DNA of 64,000 bases, taken from an uncultured bacterium (GTDB lineage: Bacteria > Elusimicrobiota > Elusimicrobia > Elusimicrobiales > Elusimicrobiaceae). The notes beneath the pieces were generated by a model that worked only from the letters and a program-made list of their open reading frames with translations, searched no databases and was not told the origin of the DNA. The position numbers were made by a program, and so were the translations under genes. The DNA is taken from positions 13,519 to 77,518 of the forward strand of contig CASFOP010000005.1 in NCBI GenBank assembly GCA_949296525.1, written 5' to 3'. Positions within the stretch are counted from its first letter, which is position 1, and each line of letters begins with the position of its first letter. Below, in pieces: positions 145 to 12,847 of the stretch.

Positions 145-3100
145 TCACAAAGGTTGCGCCATCTCTTTTAATTTAACGTAATCCACTTTGCCCGTACCCG
201 TCAGCGGGATTTCGTCCATTATGCGCACCGTTTTGGGAACGGCCAGTTCGCTGAGGCCCTTTTCTTTGAAATCCGCCAGAATGGCCGCGCGCGAAGCGTC
301 CTTTTGCGTGGTAAACAAAATCAGCTGTTCGCCTTTCTTTTCGTCCGGAATGTTCACGAGCCCGTGCATTTTGTCCGGCCATATAGCGGCCAGTTCCGTT
401 TCCACGGCGGCGAGCGAAATCATCTCTCCCGCGATTTTGGCAAACCGTTTGGCGCGGCCCAAAATTTGAACGAACCCGTCGCCGTCTATGCTGACGATGT
501 CGCCCGTGTCGTACCAGCCGTCCGTGGGCGGTTCCAATACGCCGGGGTTCGTATCGCGCAGGTATCCGGCCATAATGTTTTTGCCTTTGACGAGCAGTTT
601 CCCGCCGTTTTCCACACCCGGGATAGTTTCCAGACGGTGTTCAATCCCCGGCAGTAAGCGTCCCACCGTGCCGCGTTTAAAATACATCGGCGTATTGACG
701 GCTAATACGGGGGAGGTTTCCGTTGCGCCGTACCCTTCCATAATGCGCAGGCCAAACAAATCGTAATACTTGCGGATGGTTTCTTCCTTCAGCTTTTCCG
801 CGCCGACCACGGCCAGCCGTACGGAGTAGAAATCGTACGGGTGGGCCATTTTGGCGTAGCCGTTCAAAAACGTATCCGTGCCGAACAGAATCGTGGCGTT
901 GCGGTCATACACCAGTTCCGGTACGATGCGGTAATGCAGGGGGGAAGGATAGAAGAACACGGGTACGCCTGACAAGAGCGGCAGCAGCGTGCCTGCCGTC
1001 AGCCCGAACGAGTGAAAAATAGGCATGGCGTTAAACACTTTGTCTTTCAGGCCGAAATCCAAAATGCTTTGCAACTGCAAACGGTTGGCCTGGATGTTTT
1101 GGTGGCTGAGGACCACGCCTTTGGGCGTGCCTTCGGAGCCGGAGGTAAACAGCACCACCGCCGGGTCCTGCGCGCTCACGTTTCCGCGCACCTTTTTATA
1201 ATAATGACGCGGAAAGTAAGAGGCCGTCAGGCCGCATACTTTATCCCACCAAGTGATTTGTTGTTTTACGTCCTCCAGATAAATCAGCTCCACGCCGCTT
1301 TTGGCTATGGCTTGGGCGGTTTCTTCCAGCCCCGCCTGTTTGATAAACGCGCGGGAGGTGTACGCTTTTTTAATGTTGGCGGCCCTGCAGCAGGCGAGCA
1401 TATTTTTTACGCCCGTTGAAAAGTTCAGCATACACGGCGTTAAATTAAACGCCCTGAGGCCGAAAAATGCGGCCGACGCGGCGACCGAGTTGGGCACCAT
1501 CAGCCCCACAAAATCGCCTTGTTTGTTTTGCTTGGCGAATTGTTTCCCCAGCGTGAATACGGCGGTTAAAAACTGCCCGAAGGAAACGGGGCGTCGATTG
1601 ATATCGTCCATAATTTTTTTGCCGCGTCCGACGAGTTCCTCGGCGTCCAAGAGCGAATCGAAAAGCGTTTCGTCCGTATTGCCCGCGTCGTACTTCATAT
1701 TAACCATAATTTCGTACAGCCCGCGCAAGGCCGCCTGGCGGCGTGCGCGCCCTTTGATGTCTTCGCCGATTTCTAATTTTACGGGCGGTAAAACGGTCAT
1801 CGTAATTTTACTTTGCGGCCGCGTTTTTAACTGAGTGCCAAACCGAGAGAACAACGAATACTGGCTGCCTTCCAAACAAATGGGGAGCAACTGCGCGTTG
1901 CTTTTATCGGCAATCATGGCTGGACCGGGATAAATTTTCATAAGGCCTCCCGTCGTGGTGATACGTCCTTCGGGGAAAACGACAACCCGCTTGCCGGCTT
2001 TTACTTCCTCAATAATGGACTTTACCGCCATCGGGGCAGTAGGATCAATCGGAAAGTATTTGATAAGGTGTAAAAAGGGCTTGACCCACCACTTTTTACT
2101 GACATATGTATCAATGGCAAAATACAACTGCCCTGGAATATACACCCACAATAAAACGGCATCTAAAAAGGATGTATGGTTGGCAATAATAAGCGCATTT
2201 CCTTGCAAGTTTTTCCAATTTTCCAGCCCGTTTACTTTTACGCCGTACACAAAATTCAAAATTCGTGTCACAATCATACGGATGATGTGGTGCGGCAGGA
2301 GCCCGCAGATGTATACGGCAGCTAACGCGTTGGCAAAAGCAATCACACCAAAAACGGCAGGAATCGTAAAGTGCATAGCGAGCAGTAACGCACAAAACCC
2401 GCTACCGAGCACCATAAAAAGCGAATTAATAATGTTATTGGTGGCAATCACACGAGAGCGAGTATCCCCAGTCGCCAAAAATTGCAGCATAGCGTTAAGC
2501 GGTACGATATACAGGCCGCCGCAGACGGCAAAGCCGAGCAAATCAAGCGTAATGCGTTTGCCAGAAAAAGTTGACAAAAATGCTTTATAATCTATCGCTT
2601 CCGACGGACGGACAAACCCCGCCACGGCGCAGGCTAAGTCCGCCAGGAAAACCGTCATTAAAATCGCGCTGACGGGGACGTATTTGCTGGTAATTTCGCC
2701 TTTCACCAAAAACTGGCAGATCAGGGCCCCTAACCCGATGCCGCAGGAGAACAACGTCAGCAGAAAGGCAAACAATCCCGGCGTGCCGTTTAAAATATCC
2801 GCAGCCAGGGAAGGCATTTGGGCGATAAGCGCCGTACCCAGCATCCAGAACCAGGATATGCCCAAAATGCACAAGAAAATTTCATGGCTTTGTTTGGCAA
2901 ACGCAATGTTTTTCCACGTACTGCGCAGGAAATTTTTGTCGATTTTCAAATCCGGATTGGCCGGCTGCTGCTTGGGAATAAATAAACTGCATCCGAAACC
3001 AAGTATCGCCACCGCCAGGATAATCCCGGGCAGCAGCATTTCATTCGCCGTGATGATGAGCCCGCCGAAAATGGTACCCTGAAAAATGGAGCCGTAGGTA

Positions 3101-3555
3101 CCGGCTTCAATAATACCGTTGCCGGCAATGAGCTGTTTTTCGTTTAAAATATCGGGCAGGATACTGTATTTAACGGGGCCAAAAAATGCGGACTGCGTTC
3201 CCATTAAGAACAACACAAAAAGAAGCAGCGGCACATTGACCGTTAAGAAGCCAATTCCGGATAAAACGGCAATGACCACTTCCAACCCTTTGGTGATTTT
3301 AATCAGCAGGTCTTTGCGGATTTTGTCGGCCAATTCGCCCGCCTGCGCCGAAAACAGAAAAAACGGCAGCATAAAAAGCGCCACGGCGAGCGCCACAATG
3401 ACCGATTTACTGTTGGCGCTGAGCGTGGTTACCTTATAGGTAATAAACGTGGCCATAGCGGTGCGGAAGAAATTATCGTTAAACGCACCCAAGTATTGCG
3501 TGCAGAAAAGCGATAAAAACGCATGGTTAAAGAAAGTTTTAATAAGGGATAACAT
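145..3555 (-). CDS. Tripartite fusion: MFS lysophospholipid transporter (LplT-like) + PlsC-type acyltransferase + AMP-dependent acyl-ACP synthetase (Aas-like)
   Basis: 1136-aa ORF. The N-terminal ~420 aa is multi-helix hydrophobic. It has the HX4D acyltransferase box (ANHTSFLDA), the AMP-binding box LFTSGSEGTPKGV and a C-terminal GTGKVD. Its start overlaps the marR stop (TAATG). Confidence 0.85.
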   Translation of the reverse strand: MLSLIKTFFNHAFLSLFCTQYLGAFNDNFFRTAMATFITYKVTTLSANSKSVIVALAVALFMLPFFLFSAQAGELADKIRKDLLIKITKGLEVVIAVLSGIGFLTVNVPLLLFVLFLMGTQSAFFGPVKYSILPDILNEKQLIAGNGIIEAGTYGSIFQGTIFGGLIITANEMLLPGIILAVAILGFGCSLFIPKQQPANPDLKIDKNFLRSTWKNIAFAKQSHEIFLCILGISWFWMLGTALIAQMPSLAADILNGTPGLFAFLLTLFSCGIGLGALICQFLVKGEITSKYVPVSAILMTVFLADLACAVAGFVRPSEAIDYKAFLSTFSGKRITLDLLGFAVCGGLYIVPLNAMLQFLATGDTRSRVIATNNIINSLFMVLGSGFCALLLAMHFTIPAVFGVIAFANALAAVYICGLLPHHIIRMIVTRILNFVYGVKVNGLENWKNLQGNALIIANHTSFLDAVLLWVYIPGQLYFAIDTYVSKKWWVKPFLHLIKYFPIDPTAPMAVKSIIEEVKAGKRVVVFPEGRITTTGGLMKIYPGPAMIADKSNAQLLPICLEGSQYSLFSRFGTQLKTRPQSKITMTVLPPVKLEIGEDIKGRARRQAALRGLYEIMVNMKYDAGNTDETLFDSLLDAEELVGRGKKIMDDINRRPVSFGQFLTAVFTLGKQFAKQNKQGDFVGLMVPNSVAASAAFFGLRAFNLTPCMLNFSTGVKNMLACCRAANIKKAYTSRAFIKQAGLEETAQAIAKSGVELIYLEDVKQQITWWDKVCGLTASYFPRHYYKKVRGNVSAQDPAVVLFTSGSEGTPKGVVLSHQNIQANRLQLQSILDFGLKDKVFNAMPIFHSFGLTAGTLLPLLSGVPVFFYPSPLHYRIVPELVYDRNATILFGTDTFLNGYAKMAHPYDFYSVRLAVVGAEKLKEETIRKYYDLFGLRIMEGYGATETSPVLAVNTPMYFKRGTVGRLLPGIEHRLETIPGVENGGKLLVKGKNIMAGYLRDTNPGVLEPPTDGWYDTGDIVSIDGDGFVQILGRAKRFAKIAGEMISLAAVETELAAIWPDKMHGLVNIPDEKKGEQLILFTTQKDASRAAILADFKEKGLSELAVPKTVRIMDEIPLTGTGKVDYVKLKEMAQPL

Positions 3556-4034
3556 TATTTGTCCTCCTGTTGCAGGTTTTCCAGCCAGTTGTTTAAAATT
3601 TCAGCCGCCACGCGCTGTTGTTTGGCGGGAATACGGTCGGTCAGGCGGCGGACCAGTTGGTCGTATGACGGCCATACTTTATCAATGAGCTTTTGGCCTT
3701 TTGCGGTAATTTTAATGATGTTTTCCCGCCGGCTTTGCGGGTTTTGCACGCGGCTTAACAACCCTTCTTTGACGGATTTTTCCACCAGTTTGGTTATATT
3801 GCTGGCCGAAGCGATGAGGCGTTTGCCCATTTCCGCCTGTTTTAGCCCGTTTCCGTTGTTTTGATAAGCGGCCAACATTAATAGGTTAAACTGTACGGGG
3901 GTAAGGCCGCAGGGCGCCAAGCAGGTTTCCACTTGCACATTAATGACGTTATAGATGAGCGCCAAAGCGTACGTGATATTTTCATACGGACGGTTCTTAG
4001 CGGGGTTAATGCCGTAACGGGATAAATCGTTCAT
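3555..4034 (-). CDS. MarR-family transcriptional regulator
   Basis: 159-aa ORF with a winged-HTH MarR-like pattern (LTPVQFNLLMLA, NITKLVEKSVKEGLLSRVQNPQSRRENIIKITAKG). It is translationally coupled to the downstream fusion gene. Confidence 0.85.
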   Translation of the reverse strand: MNDLSRYGINPAKNRPYENITYALALIYNVINVQVETCLAPCGLTPVQFNLLMLAAYQNNGNGLKQAEMGKRLIASASNITKLVEKSVKEGLLSRVQNPQSRRENIIKITAKGQKLIDKVWPSYDQLVRRLTDRIPAKQQRVAAEILNNWLENLQQEDK

Positions 4035-4214
4035 TAAATATCTCCTTTGTAAATAGTTTACTAAAAAATTATTTATTTATCAAACATTTTATTAAACGTA
4101 AACTTACAAACGACAAAAACCTATTATAGAATTATAGATATGCTGAACCTTTTAATGAAAGAACGTAAAGCAAAGAAACTTCTCTAAAAATTAGCCAAAG
4201 ACAACAAATTTACC

Positions 4215-4967
4215 CTATAAAAAACGTGCTAAGCCGGCATTTGTCCACTTGGAGAAGATTTGATTCAGGTCATTCACTCTTTCTTGATTCTTTCGTTCTA
4301 TGAAACTGGGATCTCTGAAACCACCTTCAAATATCCTAGGCAACAATCTCAATTCTTGCAAACGGATAGACAAACTGGTTGCGGACACTTGTGAAAAATA
4401 AGGAGTAAGTGGTCGCGCGAAATAACGGTTTAGCTCTTGCTGACTTTGTACCCAGCGTTTTCGTTTGCCATCGCAATAATAATCTCCGGAGCCAAAGAAA
4501 TCAAAAACACATCCCCGCCCGTACTTCTCCAAAAATTTCTGCACTACAAATTGCGTCGGCATTAGCAAATGAGCAGCAAAGACATCGGCTCTGTGTTCTA
4601 AGGCCGCTAGCTGTTCTTCACTTAATTGCCTTAAATTGAGGTCAGGATTTTCACAAAAATCAATTACATGCCGCATTTCATGAGCGAATGTGAATGCATA
4701 ACGGCATCGATTTATATGCCTTAACGATTCGTCTAATACAATCCATTTCTTTTTCCCATCCGTTAAGGCCCATCTTTCTTCTGTATCTGTCTTTTTATAA
4801 ATGTTCGCGAAGCGCAACTCAAATTCTTTATATTCGGGATAAATTATCCCTGTATAGATTTCATCAATATCAATATGGGGAACAAGCCCCTCTTGCTTAC
4901 ATGTAATTAAATACCTGTTAGCAAGTCCTTCCGCTTGTCTCACATTATCAAAATCATTTTCCAGCAT
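4215..4967 (-). CDS. ImmA/IrrE-family zinc metallopeptidase
   Basis: 250-aa ORF with an HEXXH box (FAHEMRHVIDF), then ADVFAAHLLMP and a C-terminal VSATSLSIRLQELRLL segment typical of the family. It overlaps the upstream XRE gene by 14 nt and is AT-rich compared with its flanks. Confidence 0.75.
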   Translation of the reverse strand: MLENDFDNVRQAEGLANRYLITCKQEGLVPHIDIDEIYTGIIYPEYKEFELRFANIYKKTDTEERWALTDGKKKWIVLDESLRHINRCRYAFTFAHEMRHVIDFCENPDLNLRQLSEEQLAALEHRADVFAAHLLMPTQFVVQKFLEKYGRGCVFDFFGSGDYYCDGKRKRWVQSQQELNRYFARPLTPYFSQVSATSLSIRLQELRLLPRIFEGGFRDPSFIERKNQERVNDLNQIFSKWTNAGLARFL

Positions 4968-5301
4968 TCTTTTTCAACTTGGTTTTTCGATACAATACAA
5001 AATCATCGGAAAACCGATCTTCAAGTTTTAGAGCGAATTCTTCTTTTTTTTGTTCTTTAGCAACTTCGGCAAATTTGTGTAGGTCTTCTCCAAAAATTTC
5101 TGCCATACGGTATATTATCCACGGCTGTGGGATTTCATTATATATCTCTACTTTTGAAATATAACTAGGAGACAGTAATTTGTTATCTTCTCCGATAACG
5201 CCTATTTTTTCAATAAAATCTTTAACAGTCCAGCCATTTTCCCTCCTTAATCTCTGTACTAAACGGCCAAAGTTTTCTTTGTTGTTCATAGTAGCATCCA
5301 T
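4954..5301 (-). CDS. XRE-family helix-turn-helix regulator
   Basis: 115-aa ORF with an N-terminal HTH-like segment (FGRLVQRLRRENGWTVKDFIEKIGV ... SYISKVE). It is paired with the ImmA-like gene. Confidence 0.75.
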   Translation of the reverse strand: MDATMNNKENFGRLVQRLRRENGWTVKDFIEKIGVIGEDNKLLSPSYISKVEIYNEIPQPWIIYRMAEIFGEDLHKFAEVAKEQKKEEFALKLEDRFSDDFVLYRKTKLKKNAGK

Positions 5302-5435
5302 TTTAACACTAATTTTTACTAATTTACACCAAAAATAGTATACTTTGTTTTAATCAAAATGTCAACTCCCAAATAAACTATTAACATTCCACCTATTTAA
5401 TGGCGCAATAATGGCATATAGGAGTGCCATTATAT

Positions 5436-5711
5436 ATGCCAATAGCATTTCATCCGAACTATCAAATTACAAAATCTATCCTTGAAAAGCTTTATAAAAT
5501 AGACCAAATCAAAGAGCAAGTTAAAAATATACCATTAACACCGCGCGTACTGGATGGGCTTAAAGAAACGTCCCGTATTGTTACTACGCACTATTCTACG
5601 GTTATTGAGGGGAACTTTCTAACAGAACGGGAGGCGCGCGCGGTATTAAAAGGGCAAGCCATACAAGGTCGGAAACGGGATGAGTTGGACATTCGTACAA
5701 AAAACCTTTAA
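5436..5711 (+). pseudogene. Fic-family N-terminal fragment (inhibitory-helix region only): truncated gene or orphan antitoxin-like module
   Basis: ~91 codons from the ATG at 5436 (AGGAG upstream). It contains the (S/T)xxxE(G/N) Fic inhibitory motif (STVIEGNFLTEREA). No HPFx(D/E)GNGR catalytic core follows. The frame stops at 5711 and the next ~160 bp are noncoding. Confidence 0.5.
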
Positions 5712-5825
5712 AATTTAAAAGAAATTCGTTGTTTTTCCCTGTATTTACCCTGTTGAACAGGGAATTTAAGGAAGAAAAACATCAGCATATTGCTGCCCAT
5801 ACTACACACTCCGTTGCTTTTCCCG

Positions 5826-5857
5826 CAAAAACGCCGCCCCAAAAACCGGGGCGGCGT
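5826..5857 (-). terminator. Intrinsic terminator
   Basis: A 10-bp GC stem (ACGCCGCCCC/GGGGCGGCGT) plus a T run on the minus strand, after the stop at 5875. Confidence 0.75.
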
Positions 5858-5874
5858 TTACAGATAAAGCGGCT

Positions 5875-6732
5875 TTACTGGGCAGGGAAGAAAAACCCCG
5901 CCGTCATATCCAGGTAATTTTCCCCCAGGTACTGAGGATATTTCGCTTTGACCCGCGCCTTAAAATCTGCCGCATCTTTACTGGCGGCGGCCAGCTGCTT
6001 AATATCCTGCACGTAAGCGATTTTTACGGCCACTTCTGCCTGCCCTTCCGGCATATGATGCGCACTTAAAATATAGCGGTAATCTTTCTGCTGGAACTGC
6101 CGCAGAGTGTCCAACATGGCGTCGGCATGCGCCGGACCTGCAATGATGGAATGCGTATCCGCACCCAGCATATGGGTGTAGACGCTGTTAATCTCGGGGA
6201 TTTCCACATCAAAGGCCTCCGCCGTGGGAATAATACGCAGCGTAAAACCGGCCAACCGGGTTTCCCCCGCAGGCAATTCGCGGTCCATATCGGAGATTTT
6301 TCCGTCAAACGGCGCACCGAAGGTTTGAATAAAGCCGTCTATCAAAGCTTTTCCGCCCCCGTGATGGCCGTATTCCCGCGCCTGCGGCGTGGTATATACG
6401 GGCACATCAGGCAGGAAAGAATCCCCGGACATATGATAAGAAAGCAGCCTGGCCTGCGGTTTGGCATCCAAAGTGTCCATATAAGCGGCCAGTTCTTTTT
6501 CCCCTTCATAAAAGGCCGGCTGTTCTATAATTAATAACTTGCCGTCCTTCTCCAGCAGAAACACGCTGTCAGCCATCGCGTCACGCGTATCATAAGCATG
6601 GAGTTTTACGTCCCCGAAATCATAGACCTGCACCGTGCCTTTATGCAGCGTTTGGGTACGCACGGCCGGTTTATTGGTCGCACAAGCCGCACACAGCGAA
6701 ACGGCGGCCAAAACAGTTATTACTTTTTTCAT
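5875..6732 (-). CDS. Secreted protein or lipoprotein of unknown function
   Basis: 285-aa ORF with an N-terminal signal-like MKKVITVLAAVSLCAACATNK. No catalytic motif was recognised. A strong terminator lies downstream. Confidence 0.7.
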   Translation of the reverse strand: MKKVITVLAAVSLCAACATNKPAVRTQTLHKGTVQVYDFGDVKLHAYDTRDAMADSVFLLEKDGKLLIIEQPAFYEGEKELAAYMDTLDAKPQARLLSYHMSGDSFLPDVPVYTTPQAREYGHHGGGKALIDGFIQTFGAPFDGKISDMDRELPAGETRLAGFTLRIIPTAEAFDVEIPEINSVYTHMLGADTHSIIAGPAHADAMLDTLRQFQQKDYRYILSAHHMPEGQAEVAVKIAYVQDIKQLAAASKDAADFKARVKAKYPQYLGENYLDMTAGFFFPAQ

Positions 6733-10478: not shown

Positions 10479-11063
10479 ATGAATAAGAAGGGTTTTACCC
10501 TGGTTGAACTGCTGGTGGTTGTGTTAATCATCGGCATCTTGGCCGCTATGGCCCTGCCGGCTTATTTTAAGTCGGTTGAACGCGCCCGCATGGCGGAAGC
10601 GGATACGCTGCTGGGCAGCATTTCCCAGGCGCAGCAGAGACGCTGGATGAAAACGGGCAGCTATGCCAAAATGTTCAGCGGCCTGTATGCCAAAATGTTC
10701 AGCGGCCTGGATGTGTCCCCTACGTCTATTGCTACGGGTGTATTCTGCACCAAAGGCGGGACGACTGCTAACAAAACGGATTCAACGGCCTGCACCACCA
10801 ATGGCTTTGCCATGATTTTGGATCAGGCCAACGCGGGCAATTTGAATGCTGCCACAGTAGAAGCGGTACGCGTGGGCAACGCCCAATACACCTATACGCT
10901 CAGCCGCCCGTACCAGAGCACGGCTGTAACCTGCACGCCGGGTACCTCTACCGAAGATGCGGCCATCTGCGCCGAATACTGCGGTATTGATTCGCTGACT
11001 GGCGCGAGCTGCACGACAGGCGGAAGCTCTACCGGTACCGATGCAGATGGAGATGGAGATTAA
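10479..11063 (+). CDS. Prepilin-type pilin-like protein (likely strongly expressed copy)
   Basis: The N-terminus is MNKKG|FTLVELLVVVLIIGILAA. It has an AGGAGG SD, its own sigma70-like promoter, a 5' UTR hairpin and a terminator. The C-terminal part is Thr/Ser/Cys-rich. Confidence 0.85.
   Translation: MNKKGFTLVELLVVVLIIGILAAMALPAYFKSVERARMAEADTLLGSISQAQQRRWMKTGSYAKMFSGLYAKMFSGLDVSPTSIATGVFCTKGGTTANKTDSTACTTNGFAMILDQANAGNLNAATVEAVRVGNAQYTYTLSRPYQSTAVTCTPGTSTEDAAICAEYCGIDSLTGASCTTGGSSTGTDADGDGD
10662..10709 (+). repeat. Perfect 2 x 24-bp in-frame tandem duplication inside the pilin gene
   Basis: TATGCCAAAATGTTCAGCGGCCTG occurs twice (10662-10685, 10686-10709), encoding YAKMFSGL twice. Confidence 0.95.
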
Positions 11064-11251: not shown

Positions 11252-12166
11252 ATGAGGAAACTAACGCCCAAAGAAGAAGACGTCATTTTATACAAAGCCA
11301 CGGAACCTCCTTTTTCCGGTAAATTTTGCCACCATACGGAAAAGGGAACGTATATATGCCGCCGCTGCGGGGCCCCGCTTTACCGCTCTAAACACAAATT
11401 CAATGCCGGCTGCGGCTGGCCGAGCTTTGACCGGGCCATCCCCGGGGCAGTACTCTGCGTCCCCGATGCAGACGGCGTGCGGACAGAAATCATCTGCGCC
11501 CGGTGCGGCGGCCATTTGGGGCATGTATTTGAAGGGGAAGGGTTTACCCCCACCGATACGCGCCATTGCGTCAACTCCGTTTCGCTGGACTTTGTTCCGT
11601 TGCCGGAAAATGACTCCTCCCACAGAAGGCCCTTTTCGCCGGCCCCGGTCGTATTCCCGCCACCAAAGCCTTATTCCGGAGAAACGCAATATGCCGTATT
11701 TGCGGGGGGCTGCTTTTGGGGAATAGAATATTTAATGAACCAGGCCCCCGGAGTGCTGGACGTACAAAGCGGCTATACCGGCGGGGAAACCGAACACCCA
11801 ACTTACGAACAGGTCTGCCGCGGGGAAACGGGCCATTATGAGGCCGTACGCATTTTGTTTGATCCTTCCCGCACCGACTATGAAACATTGGCGAAACTTT
11901 TTTTTGAAATCCACGACCCGACCCAAACCGACGGACAGGGCCCGGACATTGGCCCCCAATACCGCTCCGCCGTTTTTTACGCCAACCCATTGCAAAAAGA
12001 AACGGCCCGGAATCTTATTGGGATATTGCAAACAAAAGGCCTAAACGTAAGCACCCGCCTGCTGCCGCTGAGCAAATTCTGGCCGGCTGAAACGCACCAT
12101 CAGCATTATTATGAACGCCACGGAAGCCGCCCCTATTGTCACCGGCGCATAAAACGTTTTGACTGA
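11252..12166 (+). CDS. msrAB: Bifunctional methionine sulfoxide reductase MsrB-MsrA
   Basis: The N-terminal half has the MsrB motifs CGWPSF and RHCVNS. The C-terminal half has the MsrA GCFWG motif. ATG at 11252 (the ORF track starts at an upstream TTG). Confidence 0.9.
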   Translation: MRKLTPKEEDVILYKATEPPFSGKFCHHTEKGTYICRRCGAPLYRSKHKFNAGCGWPSFDRAIPGAVLCVPDADGVRTEIICARCGGHLGHVFEGEGFTPTDTRHCVNSVSLDFVPLPENDSSHRRPFSPAPVVFPPPKPYSGETQYAVFAGGCFWGIEYLMNQAPGVLDVQSGYTGGETEHPTYEQVCRGETGHYEAVRILFDPSRTDYETLAKLFFEIHDPTQTDGQGPDIGPQYRSAVFYANPLQKETARNLIGILQTKGLNVSTRLLPLSKFWPAETHHQHYYERHGSRPYCHRRIKRFD

Positions 12167-12274
12167 ATGTAAATACCGCCGCGCCGCTCTTTATCCTTTG
12201 GGCGATGCCATTTCCTATATTTATAGACAAAAATTCACATGCTACAAGTCCGTGAAATGACAGTGGGTTATAAT

Positions 12275-12325
12275 GACATAAAAAAACCACGCCTTGCAGC
12301 GTGGTTCAAATGGCGCCCTCTAGGA
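12275..12325. repeat. Direct repeat copy 1 (51 bp): last 15 nt of tRNA-Glu plus 36 nt of downstream flank including the terminator
   Basis: Identical by eye to 12484-12534. Confidence 0.9.
12280..12306 (-). terminator. Intrinsic terminator (duplicated copy)
   Basis: On the minus strand: AACCACGC-N6-GCGTGGTT followed by T7. Confidence 0.6.
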
Positions 12326-12476
12326 AAACCGCCTTTTGCCTGCGGCAAAACGCGCAAAATCCTTATGCACTGCGTGCAAAACTGCCGGATTTTGTTCTCA
12401 TTTATACCCCGCCTGCGCTCCGCTGCAGCTGCCCCTTAAAAGGGGCCGGAGTTCGCTTCTGCCCCAGAGGGCGCCC
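12311..12476 (-). ncRNA. Candidate tRNA-Glu-derived structured RNA (acceptor stem retained, interior unrelated)
   Basis: The 5' GGCGCCCTCT (12475-12466) pairs perfectly with the 3' AGAGGGCGCC (12321-12312). It ends ...GCCA like tRNA-Glu. TATAAT lies immediately upstream and a terminator immediately downstream. Confidence 0.35.
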
Positions 12477-12482
12477 ATTATA
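12477..12482 (-). promoter_or_regulatory. -10 hexamer TATAAT in front of the tRNA-like unit
   Basis: Perfect consensus hexamer on the minus strand, directly after the tRNA operon terminator. Confidence 0.35.
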
Positions 12483-12483
12483 A

Positions 12484-12534
12484 GACATAAAAAAACCACG
12501 CCTTGCAGCGTGGTTCAAATGGCGCCCTCTAGGA
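12484..12534. repeat. Direct repeat copy 2 (51 bp), overlapping the genuine tRNA-Glu 3' end
   Basis: Identical by eye to 12275-12325. Confidence 0.9.
12489..12515 (-). terminator. Intrinsic terminator of the tRNA-Lys/tRNA-Glu unit
   Basis: An 8-bp GC-rich hairpin plus T7 on the minus strand, 4 nt after the tRNA-Glu CCA. Confidence 0.7.
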
Positions 12535-12594
12535 GAATCGAACTCCTCTTTTCGGATTGAAAATCCGACGTCCTAACCGATAGACGAAGAGGGC
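12520..12594 (-). tRNA. tRNA-Glu (anticodon UUC)
   Basis: Hand-folded cloverleaf: GCCCTCT/AGAGGGC acceptor, anticodon loop TTTTCAA, T arm AGGAG-TTCGATT-CTCCT, discriminator G, encoded CCA. Confidence 0.9.
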
Positions 12595-12600
12595 AAAAAG

Positions 12601-12672
12601 TGCGCCCGGTGAGACTTGAACTCACGGCCCCCCGCTTAAAAGGCGGATGCTCTACCACTGAGCTACGAGCGC
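12601..12672 (-). tRNA. tRNA-Lys (anticodon UUU)
   Basis: Hand-folded cloverleaf: GCGCTCG/CGGGCGC acceptor, D arm GCTC-AGTGGTA-GAGC, anticodon loop CTTTTAA, T arm GTGAG-TTCAAGT-CTCAC. CCA is not encoded. Confidence 0.9.
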
Positions 12673-12847
12673 GAAAAACGGTCAAATAACTTCAAGGGTT
12701 TGGGTGCTTCGGGTCAAACCCTCAACATAAATATTATACTAAAATTTTATCCGTAAGAAAAGTTTTTCGTTTTTCCTTCAGATTTTGTTAATTTATTATA
12801 GCAAATTTTTATCCGCCACAACAGGCGTATTTTGCTAGAATATGTAT

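Follow-up and report, generated by a model that had tools for sequence, protein, structure and literature searches.

A putative family of structured RNAs derived from and coupled to tRNA-Glu in gut Elusimicrobiaceae

What occupies the 158 bp that separate two exact copies of a tRNA-Glu 3' end? The question is raised by a 64,000-nt stretch of an uncultured Elusimicrobiaceae genome (GenBank assembly GCA_949296525.1, contig CASFOP010000005.1, positions 13,519 to 77,518; hereafter the window), in which a minus-strand tRNA-Lys/tRNA-Glu operon is followed by a short segment, here called the unit. An earlier note, made from the sequence alone, had read this segment either as a tRNA-derived structured noncoding RNA or as the scar of an element that once integrated into the tRNA gene. 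We found that the interval is indeed not featureless: it holds a conserved, co-oriented, terminator-ended unit whose fold is backed by compensatory changes in relatives. From comparison of these sequences, we consider it somewhat probable that the unit belongs to a lineage-restricted family of structured small RNAs, approximately 135-165 nt long, that derives from tRNA-Glu and is physically coupled to it, with expression being putative.

The exact 51-bp direct repeat that frames the insert (12275-12325 and 12484-12534) is present as described, and it reaches 57 nt, into the T loop, if two mismatches are allowed. It is made of the final 15 nt of tRNA-Glu and 36 nt of trailer, in agreement with the gene bounds given by ARAGORN, and it duplicates the terminator, with two identical terminator-like hairpins followed by a T-run at 12516-12493 and 12307-12284. 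An independent metagenome contig (L109; L numbers denote the loci and contigs compared here) has the same layout at 99.9% identity. Two further assemblies end within the repeat, as is expected of a true repeat.

Alignment to tRNA-Glu indicated where the ends of the unit come from. The sequence GGGC-GCCCTCT at 12476-12466 and the 10-bp complementarity between 12475-12466 and 12321-12312 were both found where they had been reported. We differ, however, on their origin: GCCCTCT had been taken for a copy of the 5' acceptor strand of tRNA-Glu and the unit had been said to retain no T arm, whereas the unit opens with 28 nt (GGCGCCCTCTGGGGCAGAAGCGAACTCC) that match, in reverse complement, the final 26 nt of tRNA-Glu, and GCCCTCT belongs to this inverted copy of the tRNA 3' end. 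The inverted copy covers the T arm, the 3' strand of the acceptor, the discriminator, and CC, with 24 of 26 positions matching and a 2-nt insert; its local alignment score was 36, compared to 10.1 ± 2.0 (maximum 24) in 2000 shuffles. On the other side, the unit ends as tRNA-Glu does (CGATTCTCCTAGAGGGCGCCA in most copies, CGGTTTTCCTAGAGGGCGCCA in the window), with the terminator next, and the homology enters the T loop, the 3' half of which is kept (CGGTTTTCC versus CGATTCTCC). Thus, copies of the tRNA-Glu 3' end bound the unit on both sides, inverted at its start and direct at its finish. In the window, these two copies form a closing helix (P1) of 10 bp, a 2-nt bulge, and 7 imperfect bp, and within the 10 bp three leader bases pair with the discriminator and CC. 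The GCCA tail, which had been described as left free, would be so only if the 5' end were cut at G12472, because the 10-bp helix otherwise takes in the discriminator and CC.

To place the unit among relatives, we searched a single genome of each species for the 27 nt that end the tRNA-Glu of the window. This yielded 27 loci, all from gut Elusimicrobiaceae or Elusimicrobiales, including Ca. Avelusimicrobium, with two contigs evidently mis-binned: L113 and L132, labelled Duodenibacillus sp. and Eggerthellaceae, bear the Elusimicrobiaceae tRNA-Lys/tRNA-Glu operon plus the unit and are probably binning contaminants. A full unit stood directly after the tRNA-Glu terminator at nine loci, a 5' fragment only at three, and neither at 15. 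Scanning metagenomes with a pattern across the 3' junction of the unit added four more distinct copies. The total from Elusimicrobiaceae genomes and metagenomes was 14 distinct full units of 134-162 nt, and every one of them lies directly after tRNA-Lys/tRNA-Glu, on the tRNA strand, and is followed by a terminator. Further contigs anchored on the neighboring MsrAB gene (L153, L155, L164-L166) gave no full unit and one more 5' fragment.

Tandem loci contain one or two full copies. In these arrays the first copy is intact and the distal ones are truncated or carry insertions, and decaying 5' fragments, truncated or insertion-riddled, very often close the arrays, as at L113, L115, L121, L128, L129, L132, L138, L144, L147, and L166. 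As a side observation, short hairpin repeats (ATGTCCTTTTCTCYGGGGCAGAAAAGGACCAAAAGGCC) are inserted in the second, decaying unit of L129 (tRNA-sense ~5540-5640), L132, and L113, and repeats of the GTCATCC... type lie further downstream; both kinds may be small mobile repeats. Downstream of the unit, the tRNA-Glu trailer is repeated in the window and at L115, L116, L118, L121, L129, and L140; a different trailer follows the unit at L119, L123, L131, L132, and L147. Because the flanks differ at these five loci, the unit is not defined by a long repeat of the attachment-site (att) type.

We then considered the fold. The 168-nt stretch 12476-12309 is predicted to fold with -82 kcal/mol (z = -5.1 versus dinucleotide shuffles), and the inner hairpins noticed previously, TGCAC-GCA-GTGCA (12378-12366) and TTTTGCC-GCA-GGCAAAA (12350-12334), are both there. 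Single-sequence folds of all 14 units follow one plan, namely P1, P2, an A/U-rich junction, P3 with an apical P3b, and P4, from which we model the family fold as a four-way junction. The P2 domain is a single hairpin in what we call type II units and a three-way subdomain in type I units, the window among them; the P2 subdomain drawn for the window comes from RNAalifold on four type I sequences, and the P2 covariation described below from type II sequences. The 5' side of the P3 internal loop reads G-Y-N-G-U.... As a separate observation, the P3 strands (CAAAATCC / GGATTTTG; 12354-12362 and 12387-12395) and the anticodon stem-loop of tRNA-Glu (12558-12566) have the 7-mer GGATTTT in common; a fold-back copy of the tRNA may have supplied further parts of the unit, or the match could be chance.

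Covariation was measured by two routes. A plain MAFFT alignment of the 14 units misaligned the hairpins, RNAalifold recovered almost nothing from it, and it was replaced. Route (a) was a hand-made structural alignment of the 14 units, with N as gap, in which 93% of cells were paired and 15 pairs were changed on both sides, compared to 8.6 ± 1.5 in column shuffles (0 of 500 reached this) and 2-6 when partners were slid by 1-3 columns; counted as cells changed on both sides, the figures were 45 versus 14.5 shuffled and at most 10 slid. Route (b) was unsupervised: six type II sequences, aligned with MAFFT and folded with RNAalifold, reproduced the architecture of the hand alignment, and a covariance model built from them (R1) was used to align the rest. 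R1 matched every type I unit, none of which had been seen in building it. The model-fitted alignment had 91% of cells paired and 15 compensatory pairs, versus 8.0 ± 1.7 shuffled and at most 7 slid. The compensatory changes are located in P2, in its two-pair apical stem (which caps GNNA tetraloops), in P3, in P3b, and in the outer pairs of P4. In the hand alignment, 4 pairs of P3 and 6 of P3b changed on both sides, and P3b was 100% paired with five different stem sequences and 3-4 pair types at four positions. Finally, the paired columns contain 31 G.U cells versus 9 A.C cells, an excess that points to the tRNA strand as the strand that folds.

Table 1. Features of the unit and its locus, in window coordinates.
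Feature	Coordinates	Strand	Basis or remark
Unit, 162 nt, candidate RNA, GCCCTCT to GCCA	12311..12472	-	Covariance model R1 87.7 bits, E = 2e-18; nhmmer 109 bits
P1 5' strand: GCCCTCTGGG, GC bulge, AGAAGCG	12454..12472	-	With next 6 nt, inverted tRNA-Glu 3' end
P1 3' strand: CGGTTTT-CCTAGAGGGC plus GCCA	12311..12331	-	Copy of tRNA-Glu T-loop/acceptor 3' end; repeat search
P2 domain (window)	12406..12452	-	Outer ACUCC/GGGGU; hairpins GCCCCU-UUUA-AGGGGC and GCUGC...GCAGGC with small apical stem
P3 (ACAAAATCC/GGATTTTGC), asymmetric internal loop (GGCAGTTT / TAA), apical P3b TGCAC-GCA-GTGCA	12354..12395	-	Helices 3 and 4 of hand alignment
P4 hairpin TTTTGCC-GCA-GGCAAAA plus outer pairs	12332..12353	-	Covariation in outer pairs only
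TATAAT hexamer just upstream of unit	12477..12482	-	Sequence; not conserved in relatives
Repeat copy 1: tRNA-Glu T-loop/acceptor 3' end, trailer, terminator	12484..12540	-	Exact over 12484-12534; repeat search
Repeat copy 2, with second terminator (12307-12284)	12275..12331	-	Repeat and terminator searches
tRNA-Glu(UUC), CCA encoded, source of both unit ends	12520..12594	-	ARAGORN; Rfam tRNA 61.6 bits
tRNA-Lys(UUU), first gene of operon	12600..12672	-	ARAGORN; Rfam tRNA 72.6 bits

Several points weigh against an RNA family. Because the sample is 14 related sequences in an alignment partly fitted to the structure, the covariation figures are supportive but not conclusive. The compensatory changes, moreover, spare the closing helix. 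P1 is a perfect acceptor-like helix in 8 of the 14 copies, including that of the window, and in the other six it has 1-3 mismatches. Its 3' strand never varies among the 14 because it equals the tRNA-Glu 3' end, so changes in the 5' strand are one-sided (A-U to G.U) and P1 has no compensatory change. The description of the unit as a tRNA-derived structured noncoding RNA mimicking an acceptor stem is thus partly supported: the inner fold (P2, P3, P3b, and the outer pairs of P4) and the origin from tRNA-Glu agree with it, and the acceptor helix itself is less certain. CCA is encoded in 11 of 14 copies, the exceptions being L119, L123, and L140, of which the last has a tRNA-Glu that likewise lacks it. 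In 9 of 14 copies, leader bases pair with the discriminator and with the C that begins CCA; a third base joins only in the window and L118. Such pairing resembles an inverted repeat in the DNA more than the end of a tRNA. The motif GCAAAA/TTTTGC is used four times in the stems of P3 and P4 and could represent protein-binding DNA repeats. A full copy is present in only 9 of 27 species with the same tRNA-Glu, and the closest species by MsrAB (L124; 91% amino-acid identity) has none. Finally, the TATAAT hexamer is not found family-wide.

Some of these observations would also be expected if the 3' region of tRNA-Glu had simply been duplicated in tandem, neutrally or selfishly, to leave a functionless, decaying pseudo-tRNA or palindromic repeat whose apparent structure was inherited from an ancestral fold-back duplication. 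On such an account both ends would be tRNA-derived, P1 would gather mismatches, truncated 5' fragments would be common at array ends, and the unit would be lost in many species, as we observed. It accounts poorly for compensatory changes above the shuffled and slid controls in four helices. Nor does decay fit the comparison of the window with L118, in which the unit is 95% identical and the adjacent msrA DNA 74%, a disparity that suggests constraint or recent transfer. In addition, direct repeats flank the unit and favor its deletion, yet at least nine species-level lineages of chicken, ruminant, and human gut still have full copies. We therefore regard a neutral duplication as quite unlikely.

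The alternative raised at the outset was an integration scar, and tRNA-Glu did prove to be a target for integration in this family. Among contigs retrieved for encoding relatives of the neighboring MsrAB protein, L152 (3880-6879) has genes for a tyrosine integrase and a DUF3800 protein that abut the msrAB orthologue, and the element ends in TCTCCTAGAGGGCGCCA (the attR core) plus a terminator. Tandem TGTAGTAAAAA repeats lie just after the integrase gene, and the contig stops before the element does. Integration into the 3' end of tRNA-Glu thus does occur in Elusimicrobiaceae. Prophages with related integrases (68-82% identity; L161:11096-11800 and L156:11099-11290) were seen to use another tRNA 3' end (...ATCCCGCCGAGCGCACCA). 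The attP of L161 consists of the integrase gene, two TGTAGTAAAAA repeats, ~110 nt, a core of ~20 nt, two more TGTAGTAAAAA repeats, and the phage terminator. The arms of the element that targets tRNA-Glu and of its relatives are of one kind, with TGTAGTAAAAA repeats and about 110-130 nt to the core, unlike the unit, and model R1 had no match on L152, L156, or L161. After tRNA-Glu itself, TGTAGTAAAAA repeats occur at L137 and, in degenerate form, at L114 and L120, all three without the unit. Thus, relatives do include an integrase-bearing element at tRNA-Glu (L152), as a scar would suggest, but its arms are unrelated to the unit (its other junction lies beyond the contig end). Together with the differing flanks of the unit, these unrelated arms mean that a plain att scar does not explain the unit, and we consider such a scar unlikely. 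The unit itself is probably not a remnant of the elements seen at tRNA-Glu here.

We also looked for mobile DNA that might carry the unit. It was absent from IMG/VR contigs, GenBank phages, and PLSDB plasmids, and viral contigs, when scanned, contained neither the 3' junction pattern nor the tRNA-Glu 3' end; a 15-mer scan of viral contigs gave 108 matches, all of them chance matches of 15-18 nt. Pfam scans of part of the open reading frames downstream of tRNA-Glu at the 27 loci found no integrase. The genes identified there in relatives encode pilins, a CLC channel, MsrAB, a deformylase, a cation-efflux protein, a sulfatase, and SPFH and Tim44-like proteins. The last two belong to a 3-kb insert without an integrase at L131 (SPFH/Band-7 and Tim44-like; tRNA-sense 1598-4569, locus about 3432-6403), which sits between the 3' end of the unit and a third copy of the tRNA-Glu core with the native trailer. 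The first ~300-500 nt after the unit are shared by L119, L123, L143, and L131 and contain two direct TTTTGGACAC repeats plus a terminator; in appearance this region is an island arm, from a second integrative family whose target is the 3' end of the unit. With its copy of the attB core, the unit thus gives islands a second place to land.

These results bear on a broader DNA-level explanation, in which the unit would be a by-product of recombination at tRNA-Glu, either an attL-attR remnant resembling a cis-mobilizable element (CIME) or a secondary attachment site, and its palindromes would be sites for recombinases or accessory proteins, or single-stranded DNA folds, rather than RNA. The attB at the tRNA-Glu 3' end is real, the exact repeat of the window begins at nearly the same base as the L152 core, and islands adjoin the 3' end of the unit directly (at L131, and with TTTTGGACAC at L119, L123, and L143). 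The patchy distribution is of the same character: L124 and L125 resemble L118 minus the unit, with the gap exactly between the repeats. The inverted repeats at the ends of the unit extend to the complement of the discriminator, and in the window and L118 also to that of CC, and the fourfold GCAAAA/TTTTGC would likewise fit. Such an explanation has more difficulty with P3b and P2, whose sequences vary freely yet stay complementary, unlike protein-binding sites, and with the bias of G.U over A.C, which suggests one folded strand. Moreover, no integrase lies between the repeats (as judged from the partial scan above), the unit has not turned up in the viral and plasmid collections, and the arms of the element that does target tRNA-Glu share nothing with it. 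We think this DNA-level explanation unlikely.

A transposable element of the miniature inverted-repeat type (MITE), with terminal inverted repeats that mimic the tRNA-Glu end, would fit three traits of the unit: its inverted repeats, which are imperfect and about 21-28 nt long, its length of ~160 bp, and its strongly folding interior. Yet it would not be expected to stay at one gene. The 64-kb window contains a single copy, and throughout ~360 kb of related loci every copy found adjoins tRNA-Glu; there is no target-site duplication except the tRNA end itself, and no transposase is associated. On these grounds we hold a MITE or other dispersed repeat to be very improbable.

If the unit is an RNA, does it belong to a known kind? 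The earlier statement that it matches no named RNA family was upheld: for the unit, Rfam 15 gave nothing at the gathering threshold in the window, and only tRNAs at 12 unit-bearing loci. The best overlaps in the window were anti-hemB (22.7 bits; threshold 49.5) and AsdA (19.2 bits; threshold 52), both on the terminator part. ARAGORN reported only tRNA-Lys, tRNA-Glu, and tRNA-Leu, and Rfam RF00005 had no match on 12311-12472 at E <= 10. Neither program found a transfer-messenger RNA (tmRNA), the acceptor of the unit being GCCCUCU/AGAGGGC. A tmRNA-like reading was rejected because the short frames after the A-rich junction in the window and L129 are not conserved in other copies. A small protein was rejected as well, since unit lengths differ by non-multiples of 3 and the overlapping open reading frame 12015-12290 has no Pfam match. 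Literature searches found no description of such an element.

Comparison with characterized systems suggests that the closest working parallel would be tmRNA (SsrA) and similar RNAs, in which a tRNA-type end is joined to an unrelated body. As in tmRNA, the two ends of the unit would pair into an acceptor-type helix of 7 bp, with discriminator and CCA after it, and in place of the anticodon region there is a large structured insert; maturation by tRNA enzymes would be expected. A GGAAUCGAAC box near the 5' end also loosely recalls the GGAUUCGAC box of tmRNA. In contrast to tmRNA, the acceptor copies tRNA-Glu without the G3:U70 alanine identity, inspection of the copies revealed no T arm proper, pseudoknots, or conserved tag reading frame, and the unit is only ~160 nt long and is not universal within its family. 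YrlA and viral tRNA-like structures are likewise structured noncoding RNAs that borrow part of the tRNA shape, but YrlA mimics the T and D arms internally and its termini form the Ro-binding stem, whereas the unit is tRNA-derived in the terminal helix only; Rfam gave no match to such tRNA mimics at E <= 10 in the window and none above the gathering score at the 12 other loci. The 3'ETS-leuZ of Escherichia coli is a short unstructured trailer that serves as a sponge for small RNAs. It resembles the unit as a stable RNA in or after a tRNA operon that ends at the operon terminator and is freed by tRNA processing, but the unit stands apart as a duplicated module that is highly structured and has a terminator to itself. 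Att remnants and CIMEs share with the unit the direct repeats of a tRNA 3' end around a short insert, a proven integration site, tandem accretion, and adjoining islands. They have no inverted copy of the tRNA end, however, and the 158-bp insert of the unit is conserved across species with compensatory changes and is unrelated to the arms of the elements. The unit resembles an att remnant in position only.

How would a structured RNA at this position be made? The window unit had been credited with its own -10 box, and TATAAT is indeed present at 12482-12477, but a comparable hexamer at that spacing is found only in L118, the nearest relative that has a unit, and at L129 and L132 the unit begins directly after the T-run of the tRNA terminator; an own promoter is therefore not a feature of the family. 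No -35 or extended -10 element (TGn) accompanies the TATAAT, and a promoter scan gave 0 sites. From its sequence, an independent promoter in the window genome is possible, and read-through from the tRNA operon may be the more general option.

We propose the following route for the putative RNA. The 51-bp repeat is simply a module of tRNA-Glu 3' end and terminator in which tRNA and unit alike end. Its two copies would be kept identical by gene conversion or by tandem duplication in the recent past, and unequal recombination between modules could give rise to gain, precise loss, tandem arrays, and identical trailers. The unit would be transcribed by read-through of the tRNA operon or from a weak local promoter. 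RNase P would cut the precursor at G12472, and 3' trimming would stop at CCA (12311). The product would be a four-way junction of 162 nt bearing an end like that of tRNA-Glu. We propose maturation of the tRNA type because the closing helix copies an acceptor/T-stem minihelix; such a minihelix with a 3' RCCA is a substrate for RNase P, and the maturation of tmRNA is a precedent. The mature RNA might then act in trans, for example by binding a protein that recognizes the acceptor end of tRNA-Glu or the conserved internal loops. Proteins or other RNAs might contact conserved single-stranded features of the modeled fold, for which the candidates are the GNNA-capped, purine-rich loop of P2, the A-rich junction that contains GGAG, and the internal loop of P3.

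A bolder version, which we regard as doubtful, is that the units constitute a new class of tRNA-end-mimicking RNAs, four-way junctions freed by RNase P and 3' trimming that would be recognized, and perhaps charged or sequestered, by factors that bind tRNA-Glu, or that would act against integrases or phages that use the tRNA-Glu attachment site. One possible anti-phage route is that the 5' arm of the unit is antisense to the 17-nt core that ends the integrase transcript of the L152 prophage. If the unit is expressed, it would add a new family to the few bacterial RNAs that borrow a tRNA end (tmRNA, YrlA), from an uncultivated lineage of Elusimicrobiaceae in chicken, ruminant, and human gut, and it would show a tRNA gene begetting a structured RNA, with inverted and direct copies of the 3' end enclosing new helices. 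In any case, the locus illustrates how tRNA 3' ends can simultaneously direct processing, receive recombining phages and islands, and undergo tandem duplication, and it cautions annotators against taking every short repeat of such an end for an att scar.

Three further observations concern the surroundings. Upstream of tRNA-Lys, the window contains a 31-nt direct repeat at 77% identity (12732-12762 and 12794-12824), each minus-strand copy of which holds a box of the -10 type (TGCTATAAT / TAGTATAAT); these are probably duplicated promoters of the tRNA operon. The largest cluster of open reading frames downstream of tRNA-Glu in relatives has 24 members. Genes for type IV pilin-like proteins (N_methyl motif, with a weak ComP_DUS match) lie at 10479-11063 of the window and recur near the locus in relatives.

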